In this document: positions 7,058 to 18,507 of the stretch, one piece after another | How positions within the stretch are numbered: the first letter of the stretch is position 1 | Layout of the letters: the number at the start of each line of letters is the position of its first letter | Source of the DNA: Halomicronema hongdechloris C2206 | GTDB lineage: Bacteria; Cyanobacteriota; Cyanobacteriia; Phormidesmidales; Phormidesmidaceae | Direction of reading: 5' to 3' | Assembly: GCF_002075285.3 (NCBI RefSeq) | Contig: NZ_CP021983.2 | Coordinates: 840,001 to 872,000, forward strand | DNA: 32,000 bases | Translations under genes and position numbers: made by a program | Notes under the pieces: model-generated | The model's input: the letters and a program-made list of their open reading frames with translations, nothing else | Database searches by the model: none | Told to the model about the DNA's origin: nothing

Positions 7058-8138
7058 GGTCCGATTATCTTGCCAGTTCAGCCGATGCAGCACGTTGGGT
7101 TTCGAGACACACAAACCGCTTCAGGTTATACACCAGATTTTTCAGACCTAGCTGGGTCTGGGCACGGGCTAACCCGATGCTGCGCACCACCTTGCCACCC
7201 ATGCTGGTGACGACATCTCCGAAGATGTGCTCCACTCTGGCACGGGTTTTGGAGCGCTCTCGATTCGCGGTTTTCTGGGCCTCGCTTAAGGGGCGATTGC
7301 GATAGGCCCGTTCATTTATATGCGGCTCAAACCCTATCAATTTCAGCACCTCGACAATCAGCACGGAGAGATACGCACTATCGGCCCAAAGTCCATCGCC
7401 GCTATTATCCGCATCGAGCAACTCGCCCAAGACCTGCGAGTCATGGACCGACGCATCGGTGACGCTGTAACGGCGAATGAGCTTAAAGCCGGCATCACTA
7501 TTGATGTGGTTTTTGTAGCCGTAGTGGGACGTTCCATTTTTCTTCGTCCATCGGGCGTCAACATCTTTTTGCGCGAGCTGATGAGGGGTCTCTTGCCACT
7601 CAACGGGAACCTCACCCTGCTTGAGGGTTTGGTTCTCCTCACGGGTGTTGCGTTGTTTGGGAACTGGAATCAAGGTCGCATCCACAATTTGCCCATCCTT
7701 GGCGGCATAGCCTGCCCCTTGCAGATAGGCTCCAAACTGCTCGAACAACGCCTCCACCAAGCCGTGCTGCTGCAACTGTTCTCGGAAGAGCCACACCGTC
7801 GTTGCATCCGGGACTCTATCCTCAAGCCCCAAACCGAGAAATTGCATGAAGGACAGTCGGTCGTTGACCTGATATTCCAGTTCGTCATCGCTGATGTTGT
7901 ATAGCTTTTGCAGCACCAGCATCTTGAAGAGTAACAGGACATCGGTGGGGTTACGACCGGCCTGGCTTTTGCGCGGTTTCTCTCGAATCTGCATCAGAAT
8001 CGGACGAAAGGTCTCCCACGGCACCAGTTGATTCAACCGATTCAGTACCGCCTTCTTTTGCTCCAGTTTTTGCTGGCGCTCTTCGATATCCCAGAATCCC
8101 TGCTGTCCCATGGCCTGCGTGCTTCAACAAAACCGACC
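7058..8138 (-). mobile_element. IS5-family insertion sequence of about 1.08 kb; boundaries are tentative
   Basis: The transposase ORF fills the element. The candidate imperfect terminal IRs are GGTCCGATTATC (7058-7069) and the reverse complement of 8127-8138, GGTCGGTTTTGT, matching at 8 of 12 positions. They are flanked directly by TTA (7055-7057) and TTA (8139-8141), which fits a 3-bp TNA target duplication. Confidence 0.5.
7065..8111 (-). CDS. IS5-family DDE transposase
   Basis: 348 aa. The N-terminal segment LVPWETFRPIL...GRNPTDVLLLFKMLVLQKLYNISDDELEYQVNDRLSFMQFLGL...PDATTVWLFREQL parallels the IS5 InsH N-terminal domain. A DDE_Tnp_1-like C-terminus is present (WADSAY; RVEHIFG). Confidence 0.9.
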   Translation of the reverse strand: MGQQGFWDIEERQQKLEQKKAVLNRLNQLVPWETFRPILMQIREKPRKSQAGRNPTDVLLLFKMLVLQKLYNISDDELEYQVNDRLSFMQFLGLGLEDRVPDATTVWLFREQLQQHGLVEALFEQFGAYLQGAGYAAKDGQIVDATLIPVPKQRNTREENQTLKQGEVPVEWQETPHQLAQKDVDARWTKKNGTSHYGYKNHINSDAGFKLIRRYSVTDASVHDSQVLGELLDADNSGDGLWADSAYLSVLIVEVLKLIGFEPHINERAYRNRPLSEAQKTANRERSKTRARVEHIFGDVVTSMGGKVVRSIGLARAQTQLGLKNLVYNLKRFVCLETQRAASAELAR

Positions 8139-9120
8139 TTATGATCTCATACTGAGATCGCTCTGGCTATTTTTCGAGGTGCCCCTTCGATATACGCCAT
8201 TTACAAATGCCAATGGCTATGCATTCTTTCAGGCCAACGGCATAGCATTCTCGTCTCCGGATGATGCGGATTTGATCGTCAGCGGCACCGTTAAGAAGCT
8301 GCTGACCTTCATGGTCAGATTTGGCCGCAAAAAGCACTATCTGTTGTGGACTATCGAGCCCCGATTCAGCCAACATTTTCAAGCCCAGATAGCCTATCCG
8401 CTGTTGCCGCCTGTCCATGTCATGAACGTGTATACCGGCATCTTCGACAACAATTATTTCTTTGCCCCCCAGCAGGTCATAGCGCCTGATATGACTCAGG
8501 CCCTAGCCGGTAGGAAGATGTCAACCGCCGCCCTGATGACCTACCGGAAAGGGCGGCAGTGGCGACTCATTCATCGAGGACGAGACTTGGATCTCTGCAA
8601 TCTAAGGACTGACATCGCCCTGCATGGCTACCGCCGAGGCTGTCTCGATATCTATGGCAAAGGCTGGCCTGAGGTCGTTACGGTAGGCCCCTCTACTAGC
8701 AAAGGACGACAGCAGAATAAGATGGCGATTTTGCGTCAGTATCGGTTTAATCTCTGTTTTGAAAATACCCGCTGGTCCTACTATTGCACCGAAAAGATCT
8801 GGGATGCGATCGCAGCTGGATGCTTACCTATTTACGACGGTCAGGGCACTCAGATCTATGAGGACTTTCCTGCCCACAGCTTCTTGGATTACAGCACCTT
8901 CGAGACCCCCGCGGCCCTGTTTGACTACCTGGACACCATGACAGACGACGAGTTTCAGGTGCGTCTGTGCCGCTGCGTGCAAGCCTATAATCGGGCGGTA
9001 CAAGGCCGACAGAGGACTCAACCTCGTCAGGCCATTCTCCAGAAAACTCTGCAGCGGATAAATAGCATCCTGCAGCATGGGGGGAGTCATCGAGCGCCAG
9101 ATTTGGCCTTAAGACAATGA
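8110..9120 (+). CDS. GT10-family (alpha-1,3/4-fucosyltransferase-like) glycosyltransferase. The 5' end is uncertain because the first 29 nt lie inside the IS5 element.
   Basis: YRFNLCFENTRWSYYCTEKIWDAIAAGCLPIYDG...DFPAHSFLDY (motif starts at 8746) matches the GT10 signature seen in H. pylori FucT (YKFNLCFENT..GYVTEKI.DA...IPIY.G...DF...SF). Confidence 0.8.
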   Translation: MACVLQQNRPYDLILRSLWLFFEVPLRYTPFTNANGYAFFQANGIAFSSPDDADLIVSGTVKKLLTFMVRFGRKKHYLLWTIEPRFSQHFQAQIAYPLLPPVHVMNVYTGIFDNNYFFAPQQVIAPDMTQALAGRKMSTAALMTYRKGRQWRLIHRGRDLDLCNLRTDIALHGYRRGCLDIYGKGWPEVVTVGPSTSKGRQQNKMAILRQYRFNLCFENTRWSYYCTEKIWDAIAAGCLPIYDGQGTQIYEDFPAHSFLDYSTFETPAALFDYLDTMTDDEFQVRLCRCVQAYNRAVQGRQRTQPRQAILQKTLQRINSILQHGGSHRAPDLALRQ

Positions 9121-9550
9121 CTATTCAGGAAATTCCTCGTCTATAAAGCTGTGTATAGGATACGGTCAGCCGGCTACCTACCTATCAACGCCACCTGTAG
9201 TAGAAGCCCAGGGTTGGGTCTTCGGCCCTGGGGGGGAGGTTGTCCTGACGGATAATGAGATGACGATTTCGCATGGACCGGCCTGTGGCTGAGGCATTCT
9301 GCCTAAATGGCAGAGTTAGGTTTGCTTATGGCAACGGATACCGTAGAATACTTCTGTCAATGCGCGCCAAAAATGACTGTATACAGGCTAAGCCTTAATT
9401 CTTGGTAAAAACAGACCGCTTTACCTATGAACTGAGAAGTTAGCATCATCTGCTGACCCTGAGTTCGGTTTAGTCTGCCATCACCACTGCCCGTTTCCCT
9501 GTAGCCTTTCGACTGTTACGAAGCTATATCTTAAGAATCGGGGGTGCCCC

Positions 9551-12208
9551 GTGGCCCTAAGAGTTTATCCCCGCCGGCAGGAGTGGCTAAGTCTGATGGC
9601 AGCCTTGCCCGTTGCCTTCCTGGTTTCACCTGCTGCCACAGCGCAAAGTGTCGTCTTCGACGGCCGCTTCTCTAATCAGCCCCTGGGCAATGGTCCGATA
9701 TATAACATTCTGGCTGGCCATGGTCGCTTTTCAGCCGATGGCCAGAGCCTCTTCTATAGCTTTGACCGCTTTTCCCTGCTGAATGGTGAAACGGCAAATT
9801 TTGCCGATGGCGGAGCCCAAAACATCATCTCTCGCGTCACCGGAAATCTGCAGTCCTCTATTGCCGGCACCATCAATGCCGGGGCCAATTTTTACTTTAT
9901 TAATCCCAACGGGATTACATTTGGTGATGGTGCAACGGTCAATATCGCTGGTGCCTTTGTCGCCTCTACCGCCGACAGCATTTTTTTCGATGCAGCAGGG
10001 CAATTCAGCGCTAGCCAGCCTGATCAATTTGATAATAGTTTACTGACGATCACGGGAGACCCCAGTGGCTTTTCCTACAGCCAAACTGCCCCGGCGCCAA
10101 TTCGGGTAGATGGATTGATCGGCAATCCCGGACGATCCATTTTGTTGGCCGGTGGAGACGTGATGGTGAATGGATTGGTCAGGGCGAGGGGGGGGCTGAT
10201 TGAGATTACCGGGCTTGCGGTCCCTGGCACCGTTGAGATTATTCCCAATTCTCCGTTGGGCGTGGAAATTGATGTTGCAGATAGTGCCACCCGCTCCGAT
10301 ATCACTTTAAGTAATGGTACCTTAGACGTTTCCATTGACAATGCCTTCGTCACCTTTGCAGGAGGCAGTATCGGCATCAAGGGTGACAACATCGACTTGC
10401 TGAATAATAGTGCTATTTGTGCTGGCATAGGGGCCGCTTCTGATTGTAATGGAGATAAATTTCCAAGCAATCCAGTTAATGGTGGGGAGGCAGGCAATAT
10501 CCTGCTGGATGCAACAGGACGCATGCGGCTGCTGGAAGAAAGTGCAGTTGTCAATCGAATAGAATTCGCCGCTTCTGGCAATAATATCAGTAACATTTTT
10601 GATGCTACAGATCCCTTTGGCTCGATTCTCGTTAATGCGGGATCCCTTGAAATTGATGGGATAAATTCACTGATTAGTGCCACTTCGCGGGGGACAGAGG
10701 GAAATGCTGGGCTAGTTATCATCAATGTTGAAACAGACGTTTCGATTTCCGGCGGTACGATTACGGATCCACTTTTTGACATACCTGGAGGTCTCTATAG
10801 TCAGATAGCACCAGGTACTGAGGGTAACGCTGGTGGAATCATTGTTCGTGCTAGTTCTTTGAAGTTTCTAGACAATGCCTTGATAACCAGTCGTAGTTCT
10901 GGTCAGGGAAATGCCGGTGAGGTTCAATTGCTTGTTCCTAATATTTTGATAGATAGCGCCGATGTGATTTCCACAATCGGTCCAGGTGGCACCGGTGAAG
11001 CCGGTAATATTCTGATCCAATCGGATACTTTAAGGCTAACTAATGGAGCGGAAGTATCTACCAGCCTGGAGGGCACCAGCACGGGTACCAATTTCTTCGC
11101 GGGCAATCTGGTGGATGCCATCATCTCAGGTAATTTCGAGGATGTGGTGGCGTCCGTCTTGGTATTCTCTGATTCGGTGACCATCGAAAATGGTTCATCG
11201 GTGACAGCCAGTGCCACGGGCACTGGCAATAGTGGCGGCATTTTCATGCTGGCTGATGGTGATATTCTTTTGAGAAATCAGGGGGCTATCACCAGTGAAG
11301 TGGGACCTGGAAATAATGCCATCAGTGGTGCTATTTTACTGTTCTCAGAACGATTAGGGCTCTCTAATGGCTCTAAGATTAGTGTCGAAAATCAGTCGGC
11401 TAACTTAGCCGGGGCGATTTTAGCCAGGGCTCGGGTAATTGGCTTGGCCAGGAACAGTGCAATTAGTGCCGAGACCAATGCCCAAGTGGCGACGGTCTCT
11501 GGATTAGAGGGGTCCATTTTCTTGAATGGAGAATTTTTATCCCTGTCGCTGAACAGCAATATTCGCACCGATGCCAGCGGATTAGGGGATGGCGGTGACA
11601 TTCAGCTGAACATCACCAATACCGTCTATGCCTCGCCCTCGCGAGACAGTAATATCACCGCCAATGCCACCGGTACCGGTGGCAATATCGTCTTCCCAGC
11701 AACACTGTTGTTGCGCAACATCGCTCCTCGCTCAGATGACTTCCCCGACTCTAATGACATCACCGCCAGCGGTCAGTTTAGTGATGGCACCATTTCCTTT
11801 CAATCAGGCACCCAGGATGTGAATCCGGTGCGGGAGTCGGTGACGTTGCCTAATGATTTAGTCGATGCCTCTAGTCTGATTGCCCAGGGTTGTGCCGCCG
11901 GCAATTTGCGGGCGGCCCAGGAGATTGGAGAACTGGTGGTGACCGGGCGGGGCGGGTTGCCGCCGAGCCCCTCTGAACAGGTGAGCGAGGCCGACATTCT
12001 CACCGAGTTGGCGGAGCGTCCTAGGGTGGAAGGGCGCTCCCAGGATTCGGCAACGACAGCGGTGGCGGCGGCTCCTGCGGTCACCCCCGTGGTGGAAGCC
12101 CAGGGCTGGCACTACCGCGAGGACGGCGACATCGTGTTGACGGCCCAGGCCACTGGGGCAGTGCCCACGGCTCCGGCCTTTGCTTCCTTGGGGTGTGATG
12201 ATTGGTAA
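9551..12208 (+). CDS. TpsA-type exoprotein: filamentous-haemagglutinin N-terminal (TPS) domain plus beta-helical repeats. The alternative start ATG 9596 gives a classical signal peptide.
   Basis: TPS-domain motifs NIISRVTGNLQSSIAGTI and FYFINPNGITFG (NPNGI at 9902-9916). About 8-9 degenerate repeats of the type G-x-G-N/E-A-G-x-I-x-(I/L) are present (TEGNAGLVII, TEGNAGGIIV, GQGNAGEVQL, GTGEAGNILI, GTGNSGGIFM, GGEAGNILL). Signal-like N-terminus MAALPVAFLVSPAATAQS. Confidence 0.9.
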   Translation: MALRVYPRRQEWLSLMAALPVAFLVSPAATAQSVVFDGRFSNQPLGNGPIYNILAGHGRFSADGQSLFYSFDRFSLLNGETANFADGGAQNIISRVTGNLQSSIAGTINAGANFYFINPNGITFGDGATVNIAGAFVASTADSIFFDAAGQFSASQPDQFDNSLLTITGDPSGFSYSQTAPAPIRVDGLIGNPGRSILLAGGDVMVNGLVRARGGLIEITGLAVPGTVEIIPNSPLGVEIDVADSATRSDITLSNGTLDVSIDNAFVTFAGGSIGIKGDNIDLLNNSAICAGIGAASDCNGDKFPSNPVNGGEAGNILLDATGRMRLLEESAVVNRIEFAASGNNISNIFDATDPFGSILVNAGSLEIDGINSLISATSRGTEGNAGLVIINVETDVSISGGTITDPLFDIPGGLYSQIAPGTEGNAGGIIVRASSLKFLDNALITSRSSGQGNAGEVQLLVPNILIDSADVISTIGPGGTGEAGNILIQSDTLRLTNGAEVSTSLEGTSTGTNFFAGNLVDAIISGNFEDVVASVLVFSDSVTIENGSSVTASATGTGNSGGIFMLADGDILLRNQGAITSEVGPGNNAISGAILLFSERLGLSNGSKISVENQSANLAGAILARARVIGLARNSAISAETNAQVATVSGLEGSIFLNGEFLSLSLNSNIRTDASGLGDGGDIQLNITNTVYASPSRDSNITANATGTGGNIVFPATLLLRNIAPRSDDFPDSNDITASGQFSDGTISFQSGTQDVNPVRESVTLPNDLVDASSLIAQGCAAGNLRAAQEIGELVVTGRGGLPPSPSEQVSEADILTELAERPRVEGRSQDSATTAVAAAPAVTPVVEAQGWHYREDGDIVLTAQATGAVPTAPAFASLGCDDW

Positions 12209-14135
12209 GGGGTCATGGCTAGGGGCGGGATTGTTGAGTACCGTCGTTGCCCTGGCGGTGGCTCCGGCAAGCTATGGCTTTGAGGTATCCCTGTCGGATC
12301 ATCAGGGCTGGTCGACGGATAGTCACGACCTGCTGGAGTCTGGGCCGCCAGAGGCAGATCGTAAATCCAGGCGGCTGCCGGCATCGGAACATCCCTCTGT
12401 AAGGATATGGGTCGCTCCCCAGGAAGGACTGTGGCTGGCCCAAAGCGATCCCTTAGACTCCTTACCTTTCGAGCAGCGACCCCCGTCTCAAGAGCCGTTG
12501 CCGGAGTTCGAGCTGCCGCCGCCCCTACCGCCACCAGAGGACTTAATTAAACCCCAGCAGCCGATTCCGGAGACACCGCCGCCGGTGCCGGGGGAGGTGC
12601 CGGAAACCGTGGTGGTGGAGCGGTTTGAGGTGGTGGGCAGCACCGTCTTTACCGAGGAAGAGTTAACGGCGGTGACGGCGCCGTTTACTAACCGGCCCCT
12701 CAGCTTCAATGAACTGTTTCAGGTGCGATCGCAGATCACCGATCTCTACGCCAGCGCAGGCTATATCACTTCGGCGGCGATCATTCCGCCCCAGACCCTG
12801 AGTGAGGGCGTGGTGCGGATTGAGGTGATCGAAGGTCGGCTAGAGGCCGTCCAAGTCACTGGCAACCAGCGCCTACGGGCTGACTATGTCAGCAGCCGCA
12901 TCGCTCCCTATGCCACCGCTCCCCTGCAAATCGAGCGCCTGCTGGAAGGATTACAACTGCTGCAGCTCGACCCCCTGATCCGGCGCGCATCTCCTCAGAA
13001 CTCTCAGCCGGGCCGCAACCCGGCACCAGCCTGCTCAGCATCACCGTCGACGAGGCCAAGACTGGCAGCCTGTCGGTGGATCTCAACAACAACCGTACCC
13101 CCAGCGTCGGCAGCTTTCAGCAGGTGCTGCAACTCACCGAAGACAACTTCAGTGGCCGGGGCGATCGGCTGCAGCTCAGTGTGGGCAACAGTGACGGCAG
13201 TAACACCGCCCAAGCTGGGATACCGCACCTTCGTCAACCCCCAAAATGCCACCGTCGAGCTCACCCTGGGCGGCTCCCTGGGCGAGGTGTTGGAAGGCGA
13301 TCTGGAGCTGCTCGACATCGACTCCCGCTCCTTCTTCGTGGAAGCCACCTGGCGCCAGCCCCTGGTGCGCACCCCCGAGCGCGAGTGGGCCATCGGCGCC
13401 ACCTTCACCCGGCAGCAGAGCGAAGCCTACTTCCTGGGCAACCTGTTCGGCCAATCCGTGCCCTTCCCCGCCATTGGGGCCGATGACAATGGCGTGTCCA
13501 CCGTCTCGGCGCTGCGGCTGTTTACCGACTGGGTGCGGCAAGGGGAACGGCAGGTGCTGGCCTTTCGCTCCCAGCTGAGTCTGGGGCTAGGCAACGTCTT
13601 GGGTGGCACCGTGCAGGATGAAGCCCGGCCGAGTCTGGACCCCACCCTGGAGGAACCACGCCCCGACAACCAGTTCCTCTCCTGGAGTGGCCAAGCCCAG
13701 TGGGTGCGATTGCTGGCCCCCGATACCTTACTGTTGCTGCAGGCCAATGCCCAATGGGGGACGGGCAGTCTCCTGCCAGCCGAGCAGTTCCGCCTGGGGG
13801 GCCAAACCAGTGTGCGCGGCTACCGCCAGGATTTTCTACTGGTGGACCGTGGCATCTCGGCCTCGGCGGAGGTGCGCCTGCCCCTCTATCGCACTCCCCT
13901 GGGAGACCAACTGCTGCAGGTGACCCCCTTCTTCGATGTCGGCGCCGGCTGGAACAACCGTCAGACTCCAGAGGACAATTTTTTAGCGGCGATCGGGGTC
14001 GGTCTCCTGTGGCAGCAACCCAATCTCACGGCGCGAGTCGATTGGGGCATTCCCCTGGTGTCGGTGGATAGCTTTGGTGATTCCCTGCAGGAGAATGGTT
14101 TGTATTTCTCGCTGGTGTATCGGCCGACGTGGTAG
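12198..14135 (+). CDS. TpsB outer-membrane transporter (ShlB/FhaC/HecB family, POTRA plus beta-barrel), with two apparent compensating frameshifts at about 12987 and about 13210
   Basis: Signal peptide MIGKGSWLGAGLLSTVVALAVAPASYG. POTRA region VVERFEVVGSTVFTEEEL...VVRIEVIEGRLEAVQVTGN. Barrel C-terminus FRLGGQTSVRGYRQD...FFDVGAGW...GLYFSLVY. The ATG at 12198 overlaps the tpsA stop (12206-12208). Nucleotides 12989-13213 look ShlB-like only in frame 2 (ISSELSAGPQPGTSLLSITVDEAKTGSLSVDLNNNRTPSVGSF...GRGDRLQLSVGNSDGSNTA), whereas the open frame-0 reading is Cys/Pro/Ser-rich and not ShlB-like. Confidence 0.85.
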   Translation: MIGKGSWLGAGLLSTVVALAVAPASYGFEVSLSDHQGWSTDSHDLLESGPPEADRKSRRLPASEHPSVRIWVAPQEGLWLAQSDPLDSLPFEQRPPSQEPLPEFELPPPLPPPEDLIKPQQPIPETPPPVPGEVPETVVVERFEVVGSTVFTEEELTAVTAPFTNRPLSFNELFQVRSQITDLYASAGYITSAAIIPPQTLSEGVVRIEVIEGRLEAVQVTGNQRLRADYVSSRIAPYATAPLQIERLLEGLQLLQLDPLIRRASPQNSQPGRNPAPACSASPSTRPRLAACRWISTTTVPPASAAFSRCCNSPKTTSVAGAIGCSSVWATVTAVTPPKLGYRTFVNPQNATVELTLGGSLGEVLEGDLELLDIDSRSFFVEATWRQPLVRTPEREWAIGATFTRQQSEAYFLGNLFGQSVPFPAIGADDNGVSTVSALRLFTDWVRQGERQVLAFRSQLSLGLGNVLGGTVQDEARPSLDPTLEEPRPDNQFLSWSGQAQWVRLLAPDTLLLLQANAQWGTGSLLPAEQFRLGGQTSVRGYRQDFLLVDRGISASAEVRLPLYRTPLGDQLLQVTPFFDVGAGWNNRQTPEDNFLAAIGVGLLWQQPNLTARVDWGIPLVSVDSFGDSLQENGLYFSLVYRPTW

Positions 14136-14157
14136 GGGCATGGGGAGGTAGACACCG

Positions 14158-16857
14158 ATGGCACATTGGTTTCGGTCACGACAATGGCGATGGGGACGCC
14201 GTCTGCTGCTAGCCCTGATGGCACTGCTGCTGCTGGTGCAACCGGGCATGGCCACGGCTCCTGTCACACCGGTGGAGCCGGCCCTGGTGCAGGGGACATC
14301 GCCCACGACCCTGGAGCAGCAGGCTCGGGATCTGTACGACTCGGGCCAGTTTCTGGCGGCAGCGGCTCACTTTCAGCAGGCAGCCACCGCCTATGAAGCC
14401 CGGGGGGATATCCTCGGGGCGGCCACCCTCTTCACCAATGCCGCCTTAGCCGCCCAACAGGGGGGGGATTGGTCCCTGGCCCAGCGCACCAGTACCCAGG
14501 CCCTGGTCTTAGTGGAGTCGGTGGCTGCGGAGGGGCGTACAGCAGCGGATTGGCTGGCTTTGGGCAGTGCCCTGGATGTGCGATCGCGGCTCTGGTTTAC
14601 CCAAGGGGAAGGGGAGCAGGCGGCCCTGGGCTGGGCTGATGCCGCCAGGGCTTACCAGCAGGCCGGAGCCGTGAAAAAGGCCCATACCAGTCGCCTCAGC
14701 CAAGGCCAGGCCCTACAGGCGGCAGGCTTCTACCGCCGTAGTCTGGAGGTGCTCTCGCGGCTCAGGGACGAACTGGCCTCCCAACCCGACAGTCTTACCG
14801 CCGTGATTACCCGGCGTACCCTAGGAGACGCCCTGCGGGTGACCGGCGACCTCACCCAGGCCGAGCAACAGTTGCAGGCCAGCCTGGCCATGGCCCAACG
14901 GTTACAGCTGCCCGATGCGGTTAGCCTGGCCCAGCGGGGGTTGGGGGATATCGCCAAGTTACGGGATGGCCGGAGTCGTCCCGAGGCAGCCCTGGCTGCC
15001 TATGAGCAGGCCTTTGCCACCGCCCAATCGCCGTTGCCCCAGCTGCAGGCCCGGCTGCAGCAGCTGGATTTGCTGATCACCTCGGGCCAATGGCTAGAGG
15101 CCCATCGCCTGGGGGCACCGCTGTGGGATCTAATCGAGGCCCTGCCTCCGGGACGATCCAGCCTCTACGCCCGCATCGACTTCGGCCGCCACCTAGTGGC
15201 CCTGCGCCAGGCCACGACCCAGGCCCTGACCCAACAGCAGACCCCAGCCCCCTTCTGGTACGTACTCAACAAGAAATTGCCCCCGACCACGGAGATCGCC
15301 ACCCTACTGCTGACGACGCGGCAGCAGGCCCAAACTTTGGGGCATGCCCAGGCAGAGGCCTATGCCCTGGGGGAACTGGCCGCCCTCTACGAACAGACCC
15401 AGCAGTGGGACATTGCCGCCGACCTGGCCCAAGCGGCCCTGGTTTTGGCCCAGAGCCACAACGCCGCCGCCGTGGTCTATCGGCTGCAGTCGCAGCTGGG
15501 GCGAATTCAGCTGGCCCAGGGAGACCGCCGGGCCGCCATCAAGGCCTATAGCGCCTCGGTCGACACCCTGCAGGCCGTGCGCCAGGACGTGGTGGCGGTG
15601 AGTTCTGAGGCCCAGTATTCTTTCCAACAGAGCGTTGAGCCCATCTATCGGGAGCTGGTGACCCTACTGCTGGACAGCGAGGAGCCCAGCCAGGCCGAGC
15701 TGAAGCAGGCCCGGGAAGTGATCGAGTCGTTGCAATTGGCCGAGCTGGATAACTTTTTCCGGGAGGCCTGCCTCAGCGCCGAAACGGTGGAGATCGACCA
15801 GCTGGACACTCAGGCAGCGGTGCTGTATCCGATCATCTTGCCGAATCGCCTGGATGTGGTGATCAGCCTGCCCGATCGGCAGTTCACCCATTTTCCGGTG
15901 TCGATTGATCCCCAGGCGTTCCAGCAGACTCTGGAGCAATTGCAGCAGGCCGTCTCTGACTCCCGATCTGATACCCGATCCGTCGAGGTGCGACCAGACC
16001 CTGGGGCGGTGCCGCCCCTGCTGCCCCCGGCCCAGCAACTCTACGATTGGCTGATCCGCCCGGCAGAAGCGGCTCTGGAAGCCGCCAATACCGAGACCCT
16101 AGTATTTGTGCTGGATGGTCGCCTGCGCGATGTGCCCATGGCCGTGCTCCACGACGGGGAGCAGTATTTGCTGGAGAACTATGCGATCGCATTGACCCCA
16201 GGACTCCAGTTACTGGACCCCCGGCCCCTACCCCACGGCGACCTCAGCGTCATCGCCGCCGGTCTCTCCCAAGTGGGGGAGGCCTCGGCTCGAGAGAATC
16301 TGGGCGGGTTGCCCTTCGTGGAGCAAGAAGTCGAGACGATTCAGCAGTATCTGCCCAGCAACGTGTTGCTGAACCAAGACTTTAACGTCAATAACTTCGA
16401 GACCCAGGTGGGCACCCTGCCCGCTCCCATCGTGCATCTGGCCACCCACGGCAAATTCAGCTCCAGCTTGCAAGACACCTACGTGCTCACCTGGGATGAC
16501 AAACTCACCGCCGATGAATTCAGCAATCTGCTCCTGGCCAGCGAATTGAGTCGCCAGCGTCCCGTAGAGCTGCTGGTGTTGAGTGCCTGCGAAACTGCTG
16601 CCGGGGACGATCGGGCGGTGCTGGGCTTGGCCGGGATTGCCATTCGTTCCGGTGCCCGCAGCACCCTGGCCACCCTCTGGCAGGTGAGCGATCCGGCTAC
16701 GGCTCAGCTAATGGGCCAGTTCTACCAAACCTTGAGCCAGACCCAGACCACCAAGGCCGAAGCCATTCGCCAGGCCCAATTGAGCCTGCTGCATAGCGGT
16801 GACTACAGTCATCCCTATTACTGGGCGGCCTTTGTGCTGGTAGGCAATTGGTTGTGA
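14158..16857 (+). CDS. Exported TPR-repeat / CHAT-domain (caspase-like) protease
   Basis: N-terminal signal peptide RRLLLALMALLLLVQPGMATAP. Ala/Leu/Gln-rich TPR-like helical repeats span about residues 50-500. The C-terminal CHAT domain carries VHLATHGKF (His codon 16447-16449) and LVLSACETAAGD (Cys codon 16588-16590), and ends HPYYWAAFVLVGNWL. A GGAGG Shine-Dalgarno sequence lies 9-13 nt upstream. Confidence 0.9.
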   Translation: MAHWFRSRQWRWGRRLLLALMALLLLVQPGMATAPVTPVEPALVQGTSPTTLEQQARDLYDSGQFLAAAAHFQQAATAYEARGDILGAATLFTNAALAAQQGGDWSLAQRTSTQALVLVESVAAEGRTAADWLALGSALDVRSRLWFTQGEGEQAALGWADAARAYQQAGAVKKAHTSRLSQGQALQAAGFYRRSLEVLSRLRDELASQPDSLTAVITRRTLGDALRVTGDLTQAEQQLQASLAMAQRLQLPDAVSLAQRGLGDIAKLRDGRSRPEAALAAYEQAFATAQSPLPQLQARLQQLDLLITSGQWLEAHRLGAPLWDLIEALPPGRSSLYARIDFGRHLVALRQATTQALTQQQTPAPFWYVLNKKLPPTTEIATLLLTTRQQAQTLGHAQAEAYALGELAALYEQTQQWDIAADLAQAALVLAQSHNAAAVVYRLQSQLGRIQLAQGDRRAAIKAYSASVDTLQAVRQDVVAVSSEAQYSFQQSVEPIYRELVTLLLDSEEPSQAELKQAREVIESLQLAELDNFFREACLSAETVEIDQLDTQAAVLYPIILPNRLDVVISLPDRQFTHFPVSIDPQAFQQTLEQLQQAVSDSRSDTRSVEVRPDPGAVPPLLPPAQQLYDWLIRPAEAALEAANTETLVFVLDGRLRDVPMAVLHDGEQYLLENYAIALTPGLQLLDPRPLPHGDLSVIAAGLSQVGEASARENLGGLPFVEQEVETIQQYLPSNVLLNQDFNVNNFETQVGTLPAPIVHLATHGKFSSSLQDTYVLTWDDKLTADEFSNLLLASELSRQRPVELLVLSACETAAGDDRAVLGLAGIAIRSGARSTLATLWQVSDPATAQLMGQFYQTLSQTQTTKAEAIRQAQLSLLHSGDYSHPYYWAAFVLVGNWL

Positions 16858-17061
16858 TACCTAAACAGTTGATGGATACCTTGCCTAGAAAAGACTTCGG
16901 AAGAATCGGCAGTTGAGCGATCAGCTATGTCCTACAGCATTTCCTTTCTGGGTGAGGTACAGCTTATCCCCTGAGGTCAAGGGTTTCATGGCTATCCTCA
17001 CACCTGACTAGATTCAGAAACGCTGTAAGCTAACCAGCAAATACTGAATTTCACCAAATTG

Positions 17062-17520
17062 TCATGGTTGCTGGCTTGCCTGAATTACTCGTCGGACATT
17101 TCCCAAACAACAGGATCCTTGAGGATTGTTTACTTCGCAGCCACAACGGTTTGCTTTGACATGGGCTGTAATGCTTTCGATTGCAGTGCTGTAACCCGTC
17201 GATATACGCTCGTTGCGGAGGCGCTGCCGGCTCCAGCCAAAGCAATAACAGACCAAGACTTCATCCCCACGATCTTTTTGAAAGATAGATACTTCCAAAT
17301 CCTGAGTAGTGAAGGTATCCCCTTGATTGGAAAAGTAAACAATCGGACAATCTGGAGCATCACAGAAGCGATATTGCCTTTGGGGTTCCAAGCGTGCCAG
17401 AGCAGAGGGTGTGAGCAAACTTTTCAGCGTGATAAGGTGCACTGGCTTGCCTCGCTGCTGGTTCTGAGGACAAGTATACACAGCGTCTTGGGACGACGAT
17501 GAATCACAGCACGGACCCAT
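17062..17520 (-). CDS. Cys-rich metallochaperone-like protein (zf-CopZ, i.e. Archaeoglobus CopZ N-terminal-domain-like)
   Basis: The pattern CP...KPV...T...YRFC....CPIVYF......F....L.V..K......VCYCF...//...CGCEVNNPQGSCCLGNV parallels the A. fulgidus CopZ N-terminal [2Fe-2S]/Zn domain as I remember it. Confidence 0.6.
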   Translation of the reverse strand: MGPCCDSSSSQDAVYTCPQNQQRGKPVHLITLKSLLTPSALARLEPQRQYRFCDAPDCPIVYFSNQGDTFTTQDLEVSIFQKDRGDEVLVCYCFGWSRQRLRNERISTGYSTAIESITAHVKANRCGCEVNNPQGSCCLGNVRRVIQASQQP

Positions 17521-17536
17521 GGCAACGTTCCTCCAA

Positions 17537-17584
17537 TTAGTCGGACGGTTAGTCGGACGGTTAGTCGGACAGCTAGTCGGGTTG
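17537..17584. repeat. 12-bp tandem repeat, about 4 units (TTAGTCGGACGG x2, TTAGTCGGACAG, CTAGTCGGGTTG)
   Basis: Read directly. It occupies the merF / zf-CopZ-like intergenic spacer, and the last unit contains the merF stop codon (17573-17575). Confidence 0.9.
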
Positions 17585-17815
17585 GTTATGGCAATGGCGG
17601 CGATATCGCCAGTATGACCATAGGGTGAGTCCTACGAAGGCTCCTAGTGCAGGGAGCAAGACATAATCCAGATATCCGGCCCAGGCACTTAGCCCCAAAG
17701 CACCTAACATCACCAGCAGAATCGGCGTAAAGCAACAAAGAGCAACCACGGTTGTTCCAATCAGGCTGGCAATCAACCTATTTTTGGGGTTCATTCTGCT
17801 CATTATCCTGCTCAA
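17573..17815 (-). CDS. merF: Mercuric ion transporter MerF. The likely start is one of the internal ATGs at 17803 or 17794.
   Basis: LIGTTVVALCCFTPILLVMLGALGLSAWAGYLDYVLLPALGAFVGLT matches MerF (IGTTLVALCCFTPVLVILLGVVGLSALTGYLDYVLLPAL), including the CC metal-binding pair in TM1. Confidence 0.8.
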   Translation of the reverse strand: MSRIMSRMNPKNRLIASLIGTTVVALCCFTPILLVMLGALGLSAWAGYLDYVLLPALGAFVGLTLWSYWRYRRHCHNQPD

Positions 17816-17972
17816 TCAAGCCACAGACTTTCCCGTTACAAACGGTTTCATCAAGGGCTTCAATGGAATCAGAAATTACGGCCTCAATATGCTCATATCG
17901 ATGCGTTAACTCCCGGCGAAGGGTCAGCATATCTTGAATGTGTTGATCGAGTTCTGCAAGATGTTGCTTCAT
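17778..17972 (-). CDS. Small ORF resembling only the C-terminal dimerisation helix plus Cys loop of MerR-family metalloregulators (no HTH)
   Basis: HLAELDQHIQDMLTLRRELTHRYEHIE...CNGKVCGLIE resembles the alpha5 coiled coil and metal loop of CueR/ZntR/MerR. Its ATGA overlaps the upstream ORF stop. Whether it is coding is uncertain. Confidence 0.35.
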   Translation of the reverse strand: MKQHLAELDQHIQDMLTLRRELTHRYEHIEAVISDSIEALDETVCNGKVCGLIEQDNEQNEPQK

Positions 17973-18166
17973 CTGACTACGACAGAGGGAACACGATGAA
18001 TGCCGTATTGAGCTGCTTTTTCAATACCTTCATCCGGTGCAGATGCTGTGCATAAATCCCAAATCTGCACGTCGCAATTCGAGCAGGCTAGCGCTCGAAC
18101 GAGCTTGACGGTCTCATCACACAGAGGGCATCCTGCGGTAAAAACTTCAACGATACGGTTAGACAT
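17969..18166 (-). CDS. Thioredoxin-fold CxxC protein (Thioredoxin_3-like), possibly C-terminally short
   Basis: IVEVFTAGCPLCDETVKLVRALAC..CDVQIWDL...AAQYGIHRVPSVVV fits small redox-active thioredoxin/glutaredoxin-like proteins. An AGGAGA Shine-Dalgarno sequence lies 9-14 nt upstream. Confidence 0.6.
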   Translation of the reverse strand: MSNRIVEVFTAGCPLCDETVKLVRALACSNCDVQIWDLCTASAPDEGIEKAAQYGIHRVPSVVVR

Positions 18167-18178
18167 TTTGCTTGTCTC

Positions 18179-18195
18179 CTGAACTCTGAGTTCAG
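18179..18195. promoter_or_regulatory. Perfect 17-nt palindrome CTGAACTC-T-GAGTTCAG overlapping the RBS of the thioredoxin-like gene; candidate ArsR/SmtB-type operator or 5'-UTR hairpin
   Basis: Read directly. It has the same CTGAA...TTCAG arm type as the smtA operator inverted repeat (CTGAATC-AA-GATTCAG), from memory. Confidence 0.4.
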
Positions 18196-18208
18196 CCTAA
18201 ACCTTATA

Positions 18209-18226
18209 CTTGACTTCAAGGTCAAG
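18209..18226. promoter_or_regulatory. Dyad CTTGAC-N6-GTCAAG overlapping a TTGACC -35-like hexamer (minus strand) upstream of the metal cluster
   Basis: The minus strand reads GCTTGACCTTGAAGTCAAGTATAAGGTTTAGG. TTGACC and TATAAG/TAAGGT hexamers are present, but their spacing is neither the canonical 17 bp nor the MerR-type 19 bp. Confidence 0.35.
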
Positions 18227-18445
18227 CACTTTCCTGAAACACCTGTCTGAACGCTGTGCCTGAGCGTTGTCAACTGACTCAGGAAACCACTCGGCTTCTA
18301 AGCTATTGCGGCAAGCCTCCTCTATCGAGCCCTAAGGGAACGTTTCGCAGCCCCATGGCTGATGGTGTGTCGATTATGCCATCCCCGGGTGATGCCCAAA
18401 ACCACCTGGGAGCGTTACGGTGATTGCAGCGATATATATAGTAGT

Positions 18446-18507
18446 AGCCAGTCAGCTTCCCTAGACTAGGCAATTAGGCGATCAGCAATGTCCTAAGCTG
18501 ACTGGCT
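18446..18507. repeat. Perfect 13-bp inverted repeat (AGCCAGTCAGCTT ... AAGCTGACTGGCT) with a 36-nt loop
   Basis: Read directly (18446-18458 and 18495-18507). It lies 80 nt upstream of the SBP start, in the divergent intergenic region. Confidence 0.85.

Follow-up and report, generated by a model that had tools for sequence, protein, structure and literature searches.

A 32,000-nucleotide stretch of the Halomicronema hongdechloris C2206 genome (contig NZ_CP021983.2, positions 840,001 to 872,000 of the forward strand; here called the window, with positions counted from its first nucleotide) carries three consecutive genes that encode a two-partner secretion (TPS) exoprotein, TpsA, an Omp85/ShlB-type transporter, TpsB, and a protein that combines tetratricopeptide repeats (TPR) with a CHAT domain. 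The best reading of the data presented below is that tpsA, tpsB, and the TPR-CHAT gene constitute one module. We favor, tentatively, the proposal that the CHAT protein is a periplasmic protease that would act on the C-terminal tail of TpsA and thereby mature or release the exoprotein, and we think that this could well be correct. It is plausible, in functional terms, that the locus encodes a TPS system with its own periplasmic caspase-fold accessory protease.

All three open reading frames (ORFs) lie on the forward strand. The tpsA gene occupies 9551 to 12208 (885 aa, GTG start), tpsB occupies 12198 to 14135 (ATG at 12198, with an alternative TTG at 12180), and the TPR-CHAT gene, which encodes a candidate exported caspase-fold cysteine protease of 899 aa, occupies 14158 to 16857. 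The tpsB ATG overlaps the end of tpsA (stop codon TAA at 12206 to 12208) by 11 nt, and a spacer of 22 nt separates the tpsB stop codon (TAG at 14133 to 14135) from the ATG of the CHAT gene at 14158, preceded by a GGAGG ribosome-binding site at 14144 to 14148. A first-pass annotation of this DNA had described a tightly packed, same-strand gene trio with this overlap, spacer, and GGAGG, and we confirmed both the ORFs and their junctions in the sequence. A scan for promoters and terminators found a number of sites not above that in shuffled sequence.

We scanned species-representative genomes for relatives and recovered at least 593 loci, almost all of them cyanobacterial. The best 80 of these, nearly all from cyanobacteria and covering many genera, were analyzed with up to 10 kb of flanking sequence per side, and TPS, TpsB, and CHAT ORFs were mapped by BLAST with the window proteins. 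Across the 74 loci with at least 1 kb of sequence upstream of the CHAT gene, 38 same-strand TPS-system genes end within that 1 kb, compared to 1.7 expected from how densely these genes occur beyond a distance of 5 kb (a 22-fold excess over local background, Poisson P ~2e-37). The first-pass annotation had suggested weighing CHAT-TPS linkage against chance, and the outcome is a strong enrichment. When we considered the 69 loci whose upstream flank measures 3 kb or more, the same-strand gene whose end falls in the 1 kb upstream of the CHAT gene was tpsA in 29 loci and tpsB in 4. Order and strand are kept in Nostocales, Oscillatoriales, Leptolyngbya-like, Pleurocapsales, and Pseudanabaena lineages even though the genes around them change, and in several loci two to three tandem tpsA genes are followed by one CHAT gene (L026, L029, L056, L057, L059, and L077). 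Independent annotations agree with this picture. In Nostoc punctiforme PCC 73102, a TPS gene is followed by a CHAT gene and their ends overlap, and in L081, a locus from metagenomes, a TPS, POTRA_2/ShlB, and CHAT triad is syntenic with the window.

The product of the third gene has the domain, the dyad, and the fold of a known protease family, which makes it a candidate protease. It matches Pfam CHAT over residues 623 to 897 (16024 to 16848, E = 4e-64) as well as TPR (TPR_12), with a TPR solenoid at residues 49 to 534 (14302 to 15759) delimited from predicted secondary structure and TPR matches. The predicted catalytic residues are His764 (16447 to 16449, in the context HLATHGKF) and Cys811 (16588 to 16590, in the context LSACETAAGD). 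In an alignment of 30 diverse homologues, both residues and the motifs surrounding them are invariant, which argues that catalysis has been selected for; the 899-aa TPR-CHAT protein with a His/Cys dyad at codons 16447 and 16588, as first annotated, is thus borne out. The AlphaFold2 (AF2) model of the protein (predicted local distance difference test [pLDDT] score 82.8, predicted template modeling [pTM] score 0.76) consists of a helix at residues 2 to 26, a disordered segment at 27 to 45, the TPR solenoid, and the CHAT domain. The best Foldseek matches of this model are DdvA, a periplasmic TPR-CHAT protein, separase, and Csx29 (E ~1e-12 to 8rw5, 9hma, 7y9x, and 8eex), with TM-scores that are low (0.25 to 0.48) because the solenoids differ in shape. 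Separase and the craspase component Csx29 share fold and dyad with the window protein but differ in location (cytoplasm or nucleus) and in regulation (by securin or by RNA-guided Cas7-11), and they have no link to secretion. We collected 89 full-length CHAT homologues, nearly all of them cyanobacterial, the closest of which is the 87% identical protein of L081; an exact look-up of the window protein itself returned no record. None of the curated NCBIfam models names the CHAT protein, and PADLOC returned only a generic TPR match and a marginal BovA match (E = 0.003) for it and none for TpsA or TpsB, so the locus does not correspond to a cataloged anti-phage defense system.

The N-terminus of the CHAT protein contains five arginines, a 12-residue leucine-rich core (LLLALMALLLLV), and then QPGMA/TAP, with small residues at positions -3 and -1. 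By heuristic reading, residues 1 to 32 (...VQPGMA/TAP, 14158 to 14253) are predicted to form a cleavable Sec signal peptide, with Thr33 as the first residue after the cut. The same signal-peptide-like shape is common to most of the full-length CHAT homologues, so the clear Sec-type signal peptide of the first-pass annotation extends, at this heuristic level, to the family. Export by the twin-arginine (Tat) pathway was considered and set aside, given that the arginine pair is RH in the 87% identical relative and that the core is very hydrophobic. A periplasmic TPR-CHAT protein is therefore plausible from the sequence, and there is one published precedent, DdvA of Myxococcus xanthus (PDB 8rw5/8rot), which is also the best structural match and is a periplasmic TPR-CHAT protein with a His-Cys dyad. 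Its authors describe it as the only periplasmic TPR-CHAT reported so far (PMC11506125). DdvA differs in that it forms the periplasmic part of an anti-sigma factor anchored in the membrane and has no TPS partner, whereas the window protein lacks an anti-sigma domain and begins with what looks like a cleavable signal peptide.

TpsA has the features of a TPS exoprotein. A heuristic reading of the sequence places a predicted signal peptide at residues 1 to 31 (...SPAATA/QS, 9551 to 9643); the extension that begins VALR at the GTG start is common to L081, where the gene was called from an ATG equivalent to 9596. The TPS secretion domain spans residues 63 to 259 (9737 to 10327; Pfam TPS, E = 4e-30, and an NCBIfam TIGR01901 match). 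It contains NPNGI at residue 118, lacks the first of the canonical TPS-domain motifs, NPNL, and matches, at the level of sequence, the corresponding domains of EtpA, HxuA, and the HMW1 adhesin. G-x-G-N-A-G-like repeats are present, and the AF2 model (pTM 0.76, pLDDT of at least 70 in 628 of 885 residues) shows a beta-helix over residues 34 to 756. The L081 orthologue is 91% identical. The 120 best TpsA homologues include no TPS-CHAT fusion protein. Although the pair of genes and the beta-helical exoprotein resemble cdiBAI, the contact-dependent inhibition (CDI) locus, TpsA has no VENN/LYN or pretoxin motif and no variable toxin tip, and tpsA is followed directly by tpsB with no small ORF that could be an immunity gene. 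The constant part of these proteins is the C-terminus, the opposite of a CDI toxin. The first-pass annotation had recognized the NPNGI-containing TPS domain and the repeats and had argued that this is not a CDI or haemolysin locus; we reached the same view, with the addition that TpsA ends not in a toxin but in a conserved tail.

This tail comprises residues 757 to 885 (11819 to 12205), and in our alignments the cyanobacterial relatives of TpsA all end in the same module. Column conservation over 177 cyanobacterial tails picks out Cys781 (11891 to 11893, 99%), TGRGGLP at residues 798 to 804 (11942 to 11962, 85 to 98%), and Pro807 (95%), after which comes a variable linker, followed by EAQGW (E-A-x-G-W) at residues 849 to 853 (12095 to 12109, 82 to 95%), Gly859 (98%), and Cys882 (12194 to 12196, 95%). 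In a subset of 75 sequences, the equivalent of Cys882 lies a median of ~4 residues from the C-terminus. AF2 assigns pLDDT <50 across residues 757 to 885 except in a small hairpin at 852 to 864, and outside this hairpin the tail is probably disordered. Strong conservation without a predicted fold is the pattern to be expected of segments that a partner protein binds, threads, or cuts. A segment that is 82 to 99% conserved in 177 sequences, yet predicted to be disordered, is a plausible recognition or cleavage segment, and the tail is the most likely contact point for the CHAT protease. A homology search with the tail alone gave only 6 matches owing to the word index and is uninformative.

The proposed mechanism combines steps established for the TPS family with steps that we infer for this locus. 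TpsA would be exported by Sec, as is established for the family, and by the established TPS mechanism the POTRA domains of TpsB would recognize the TPS domain while the beta-helix (residues 34 to 756) is threaded through the barrel to the surface. The tail of ~130 residues (Cys781...TGRGGLP...linker...EAQGW...Cys882) would stay in the periplasm or in the pore. The TPR solenoid of the Sec-exported CHAT protein would bind this tail in the periplasm, and the His764/Cys811 dyad would cut it, so that the exoprotein is matured or freed from the cell. Tight coupling of the genes, a predicted shared compartment, and conserved adjacency together argue for TPR-CHAT and TpsA as partners. Such a system would be comparable to LapG acting on CdrA or SphB1 acting on FhaB, except that the protease is unrelated to these and its gene belongs to the operon itself.

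According to a 2017 review, the genes for the maturation proteases of TPS systems lie outside the TPS operons, and the periplasmic cysteine protease LapG cuts the TpsA adhesin CdrA in its periplasmic C-terminal tail and thereby releases CdrA (PMC5422565). The CdrA/CdrB-LapG/LapD system of Pseudomonas aeruginosa is thus similar to the proposed one in that a TpsA protein is held at the surface by a periplasmic C-terminal tail on which a cysteine protease acts, and its transmembrane receptor, LapD, may parallel the CHASE2 receptors found in related loci (see below). However, LapG, a calcium-dependent cysteine protease of the DUF920 family, does not have a CHAT/caspase fold, its gene lies outside the cdrAB operon, the two tails have no motifs in common, and control by cyclic di-GMP is not indicated here. 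Among the window ORFs scanned with Pfam and in the annotation of L081, we found no LapD-like gene; with CHAT as the protease, the likeness to a LapG-type system is functional only. FhaB/FhaC-SphB1 of Bordetella pertussis is similar in that a dedicated protease removes a C-terminal portion at maturation or release, but SphB1 is a subtilisin autotransporter encoded elsewhere, and the FhaB prodomain has ~1200 residues compared to the 130-residue tail of TpsA. In hmw1ABC and hxuCBA of Haemophilus influenzae, a TPS pair does share its operon with a functionally coupled third gene, although the product of that gene is no protease but either a glycosyltransferase or a TonB-dependent receptor. The first-pass annotation knew of no functional description of the triad. 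Full-text literature, with most subscription journals outside its coverage, likewise yielded none: there was no biological match for CHAT together with two-partner secretion, hemagglutinin, TpsA, TpsB, ShlB, FhaC, or POTRA. Two candidate precedents were rejected. The polymorphic toxins of PMC3482391 contain caspase-like releasing peptidases within the toxins, not a separate periplasmic CHAT protein beside TPS genes. The phage-resistance mutations of PMC10811720, which affect two genes of Nostoc 7120, all2170 (CHAT) and one with an FHA-N domain, arose in different strains with no stated linkage, and all2170 could not be placed in the family described here.

Several observations weigh against tail processing by the CHAT protease as the function of the module. 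The P value for linkage is inflated since the loci are not phylogenetically independent. Of the 69 loci with 3 kb or more of upstream sequence, 25 have no TpsA, TpsB, DUF928, or CHASE2 gene whose end falls in the 1 kb before the CHAT gene, and six of the 37 loci with full flanks combine CHAT, DUF928, and CHASE2 genes with no TPS gene; TpsA may therefore not be the substrate of the protease, or not the only one. The conserved tail is common to the whole cyanobacterial TpsA family rather than restricted to the CHAT-adjacent copies. When large genomes were sampled from the TpsA side, a CHAT gene was adjacent in only one of five homologues, which would mean that TpsA paralogues outnumber CHAT genes and that one protease would serve several of them. 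We consider it probable that one CHAT gene does serve several TpsA paralogues. The placement of the tail could be either periplasmic or on the surface. Finally, CHAT proteases differ in specificity, which is for Arg in the case of separase and for Met or Leu in the case of craspases (PMC11506125). No cut site is predictable in the TpsA tail, and cutting of the tail is a proposal.

The DUF928 and CHASE2 genes of related loci suggest an alternative that we regard as possible, if rather doubtful: the CHAT protein would be the hub of a periplasmic signaling pathway in which its substrate or partner is the secreted DUF928 protein or the CHASE2 transmembrane receptor, and TpsA, rather than being cut by the protease, would merely act as a sensor upstream or belong to the surface components under shared regulation. 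By clustering the other flanking ORFs of the 80 loci, we found that secreted DUF928 (PF06051) proteins of ~250 aa are encoded in 45 loci and transmembrane receptors with a CHASE2 domain in 41, the latter usually 1 to 1.7 kb downstream of the CHAT gene, in the usual order tpsA(n)-CHAT-DUF928-CHASE2. Examples of DUF928 and CHASE2 genes beside a CHAT gene are L009 (12578 to 15850) and L034 (12714 to 16693), and Nostoc punctiforme PCC 73102 (L084, 11818 to 17515) has the full TPS-CHAT-DUF928-(Pkinase-CHASE2) set. Across the 37 full-flank loci, TpsA, DUF928, and CHASE2 occur together in 17, the six without TPS mentioned above have DUF928 and CHASE2, and TpsA alone is present in three. The neighborhood is thus centered on the CHAT gene. 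The receptors have the CHASE2 domain in common but differ in their cytoplasmic output, which can be a histidine kinase, an adenylate/guanylate cyclase, AAA_35, a Ser/Thr kinase, or CHAT, and DdvA has itself been proposed to act in signal transduction. On the other side, the window and its closest relative, L081, keep tpsA-tpsB-CHAT with neither DUF928 nor CHASE2 nearby and represent the minimal form of the module. Moreover, a TPS gene is the immediate upstream neighbor of the CHAT gene, often with overlapping ends, far more often than any other gene is. Searched full-text literature contained only an unrelated mention of DUF928 and, for CHASE2 together with CHAT, no description of this cluster.

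Signaling and processing of the TpsA tail are compatible, and the former may extend the latter. An elaborate combination, which we consider unlikely, is a proteolytic cascade from surface to cytoplasm: the variable TpsA beta-helix would sense contact, a phage, or a neighboring cell outside the cell, the periplasmic CHAT protein would cut the conserved tail or DUF928, and the product or the freed protease would be read by CHASE2 receptors with kinase, cyclase, STAND-ATPase, or CHAT outputs. We also considered STAND NTPases (HTH_VMAP-M9 and NB-ARC, with or without WD40; L084 17553 to 19250 and L087 2271 to 5939) as a part of the module itself, since their genes adjoin two of the TPS loci; relatives of these occur in only 5 of the 80 CHAT loci, and they are probably not part of it. 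Some features of the neighboring proteins are recorded here as separate observations. The DUF928 proteins of L002 to L080 have a signal peptide, a proline-rich stretch, and a conserved G-G-x-S-R motif, which is duplicated in some Nostoc members; this Gly/Arg-rich motif recalls the TGRGGLP of the TpsA tail, and the two are not alignable. At L013 (6515 to 9061), one receptor joins a cytoplasmic CHAT domain to CHASE2, a second and independent connection between CHAT and CHASE2.

The remaining alternatives are less probable. We judge it quite unlikely that the CHAT protein is a sortase-like transpeptidase that would remove the TpsA tail and link the beta-helix covalently to an envelope component. 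The conserved C-terminal tail does resemble a sorting signal, it is paired with a dedicated caspase-fold enzyme, and some members of the family are named "S-layer family protein" by NCBI. Clan CD includes transpeptidases, namely PorU in type IX secretion and the glycosylphosphatidylinositol (GPI) transamidase (GPI8). However, no acceptor molecule is evident in the neighborhood, and we know of no CHAT-family member that catalyzes transpeptidation. Less credible again is a TPR-CHAT protein that serves as a noncatalytic periplasmic chaperone or scaffold for TpsA ahead of its secretion or in the course of it. Extended peptides are bound by TPR solenoids, the CHAT site of DdvA is in a resting state, and mutants of the DdvA dyad had no phenotype under the conditions tested, but the invariance of His764, Cys811, and their motifs in 30 homologues argues for retained catalysis. 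The first-pass annotation had offered as an alternative that the CHAT protein is itself cargo, an effector exported by TpsB or presented on TpsA, and we regard this as very improbable. All that speaks for it is that the CHAT gene of the window adjoins tpsB, and tpsB is adjacent in only ~10 of the 80 loci. Co-delivery of TpsA and CHAT finds no support because the CHAT protein has no TPS domain; in addition, no immunity-like gene is present, and the PADLOC matches are limited to the generic TPR and marginal BovA (E = 0.003) ones. That the adjacency is meaningless, the product of chance or of shared inheritance of a surface-protein island, is barely credible, because even though the 80 loci come from related genomes and their counts are inflated by descent, gene order and strand persist across lineages amid differing surroundings at 22-fold over the local background.

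TpsB has a Pfam POTRA_2 match (E = 9e-23), a proline-rich N-terminal region, and the L6 motif VRGY at residue 539. Its gene, however, is not intact, and its reading frame carries frameshifts that the first-pass annotation had missed. Compared to L081, which is syntenic and 87 to 91% identical, tpsB in the window has 2 additional nt near 12989 to 12990 and 1 additional nt in a run of C at 13209. These frameshifts compensate for each other, so the ORF stays open, and ~73 codons between 12989 and 13209 are read out of frame, as determined by three-frame translation, tblastn and DNA alignment to L081, and a repair test. The true reading between ~12989 and 13209 lies in the +2 frame (SSELSAGPQPGTSLLSITVDEAKTGSLSVDLNNNRTPSVG...), and the L081 protein reads ...RRVSSELSAGPQPGTSLLSITVDEAKTGSLSVDLNNNRAPSVG... 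at this stretch. As it stands, TpsB matches Pfam ShlB over profile positions 154 to 309 only; after in-silico removal of the three bases, the match covers positions 1 to 309, as in the intact L081 orthologue. The N-terminal half of the barrel is thus out of frame in the window. The scrambled stretch starts where the POTRA region ends and reaches the first strands of the barrel, a part of the protein in which this change is not likely to be tolerated, and TpsB is therefore probably defective here if the indels are genuine. The frameshifts could reflect either a true crippling mutation or an error of sequencing. In the former case, the window copy may depend on another TpsB or be inactive. Separately, tpsA and tpsB are each split into two ORFs in L082, a metagenome contig, and we considered gene decay as the cause; the duplications responsible (127 nt at ~6130 and 157 nt at ~8866) are absent from the otherwise identical L081 and are likely assembly artifacts.

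Within tpsA, third-position GC content is a mosaic, falling to 0.28 to 0.38 over codons 280 to 480 and 560 to 620 and reaching ~0.8 in the conserved tail, compared to 0.73 to 0.76 in tpsB and the CHAT gene. The same contrast is seen in L081. Possible causes are exchange of beta-helix cassettes or a codon bias specific to the repeats. Upstream of the triad, sequence comparison identified what is left of another tpsA gene on the forward strand (9185 to 9292), a relic of its 3' end that consists of the last 35 codons (STPPVVEAQGWVFGPGGEVVLTDNEMTISHGPACG and a stop codon). The relic encodes STPPVVEAQGWVFGPGGEVVLT...PACG (...VVEAQGWVFGPGGEVVLT...PACG), again up to the stop. It suggests either a lost tandem tpsA paralogue or a fragment carried in with adjacent mobile DNA. 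The relic lies inside a 2.8-kb insertion relative to L081 (6680 to 9487), which also contains an IS5/DDE transposase gene on the reverse strand (7065 to 8111) and a GT10 fucosyltransferase-like gene (8110 to 9120) whose start abuts that of the transposase gene. On the 3' side of the CHAT gene, the segment from 16876 to 18465 is also unlike L081, which has three small ORFs at this place, one of them encoding DUF6887. In the window, this downstream segment carries genes for a CopZ-like zinc-binding/BFD protein (17062 to 17520) and a MerF-type transporter (17573 to 17815), both on the reverse strand.

TPS systems are regarded as two-component machines whose maturation proteases, in the cases known, are encoded elsewhere (PMC5422565), and a periplasmic protease of the separase/craspase family whose gene is conserved next to tpsA, often with an overlap, would be a new class of type Vb accessory protein. 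If the CHAT protein is periplasmic, it would provide only the second setting for a periplasmic TPR-CHAT after DdvA. Relatives are encoded in at least 593 loci of species-representative genomes, almost all in cyanobacteria, where the TpsA and CHAT proteins are without a known role. DUF928 and CHASE2 likewise lack a known function or ligand, and their link to the cluster gives a testable handle on both. Nostoc punctiforme PCC 73102, which carries the cluster at ~3.977 to 3.997 Mb of CP001037.1, is genetically tractable. If the signaling cascade is true, it would provide the first ligand or pathway for CHASE2 and would amount to an "extrinsic" caspase-type cascade in multicellular bacteria.

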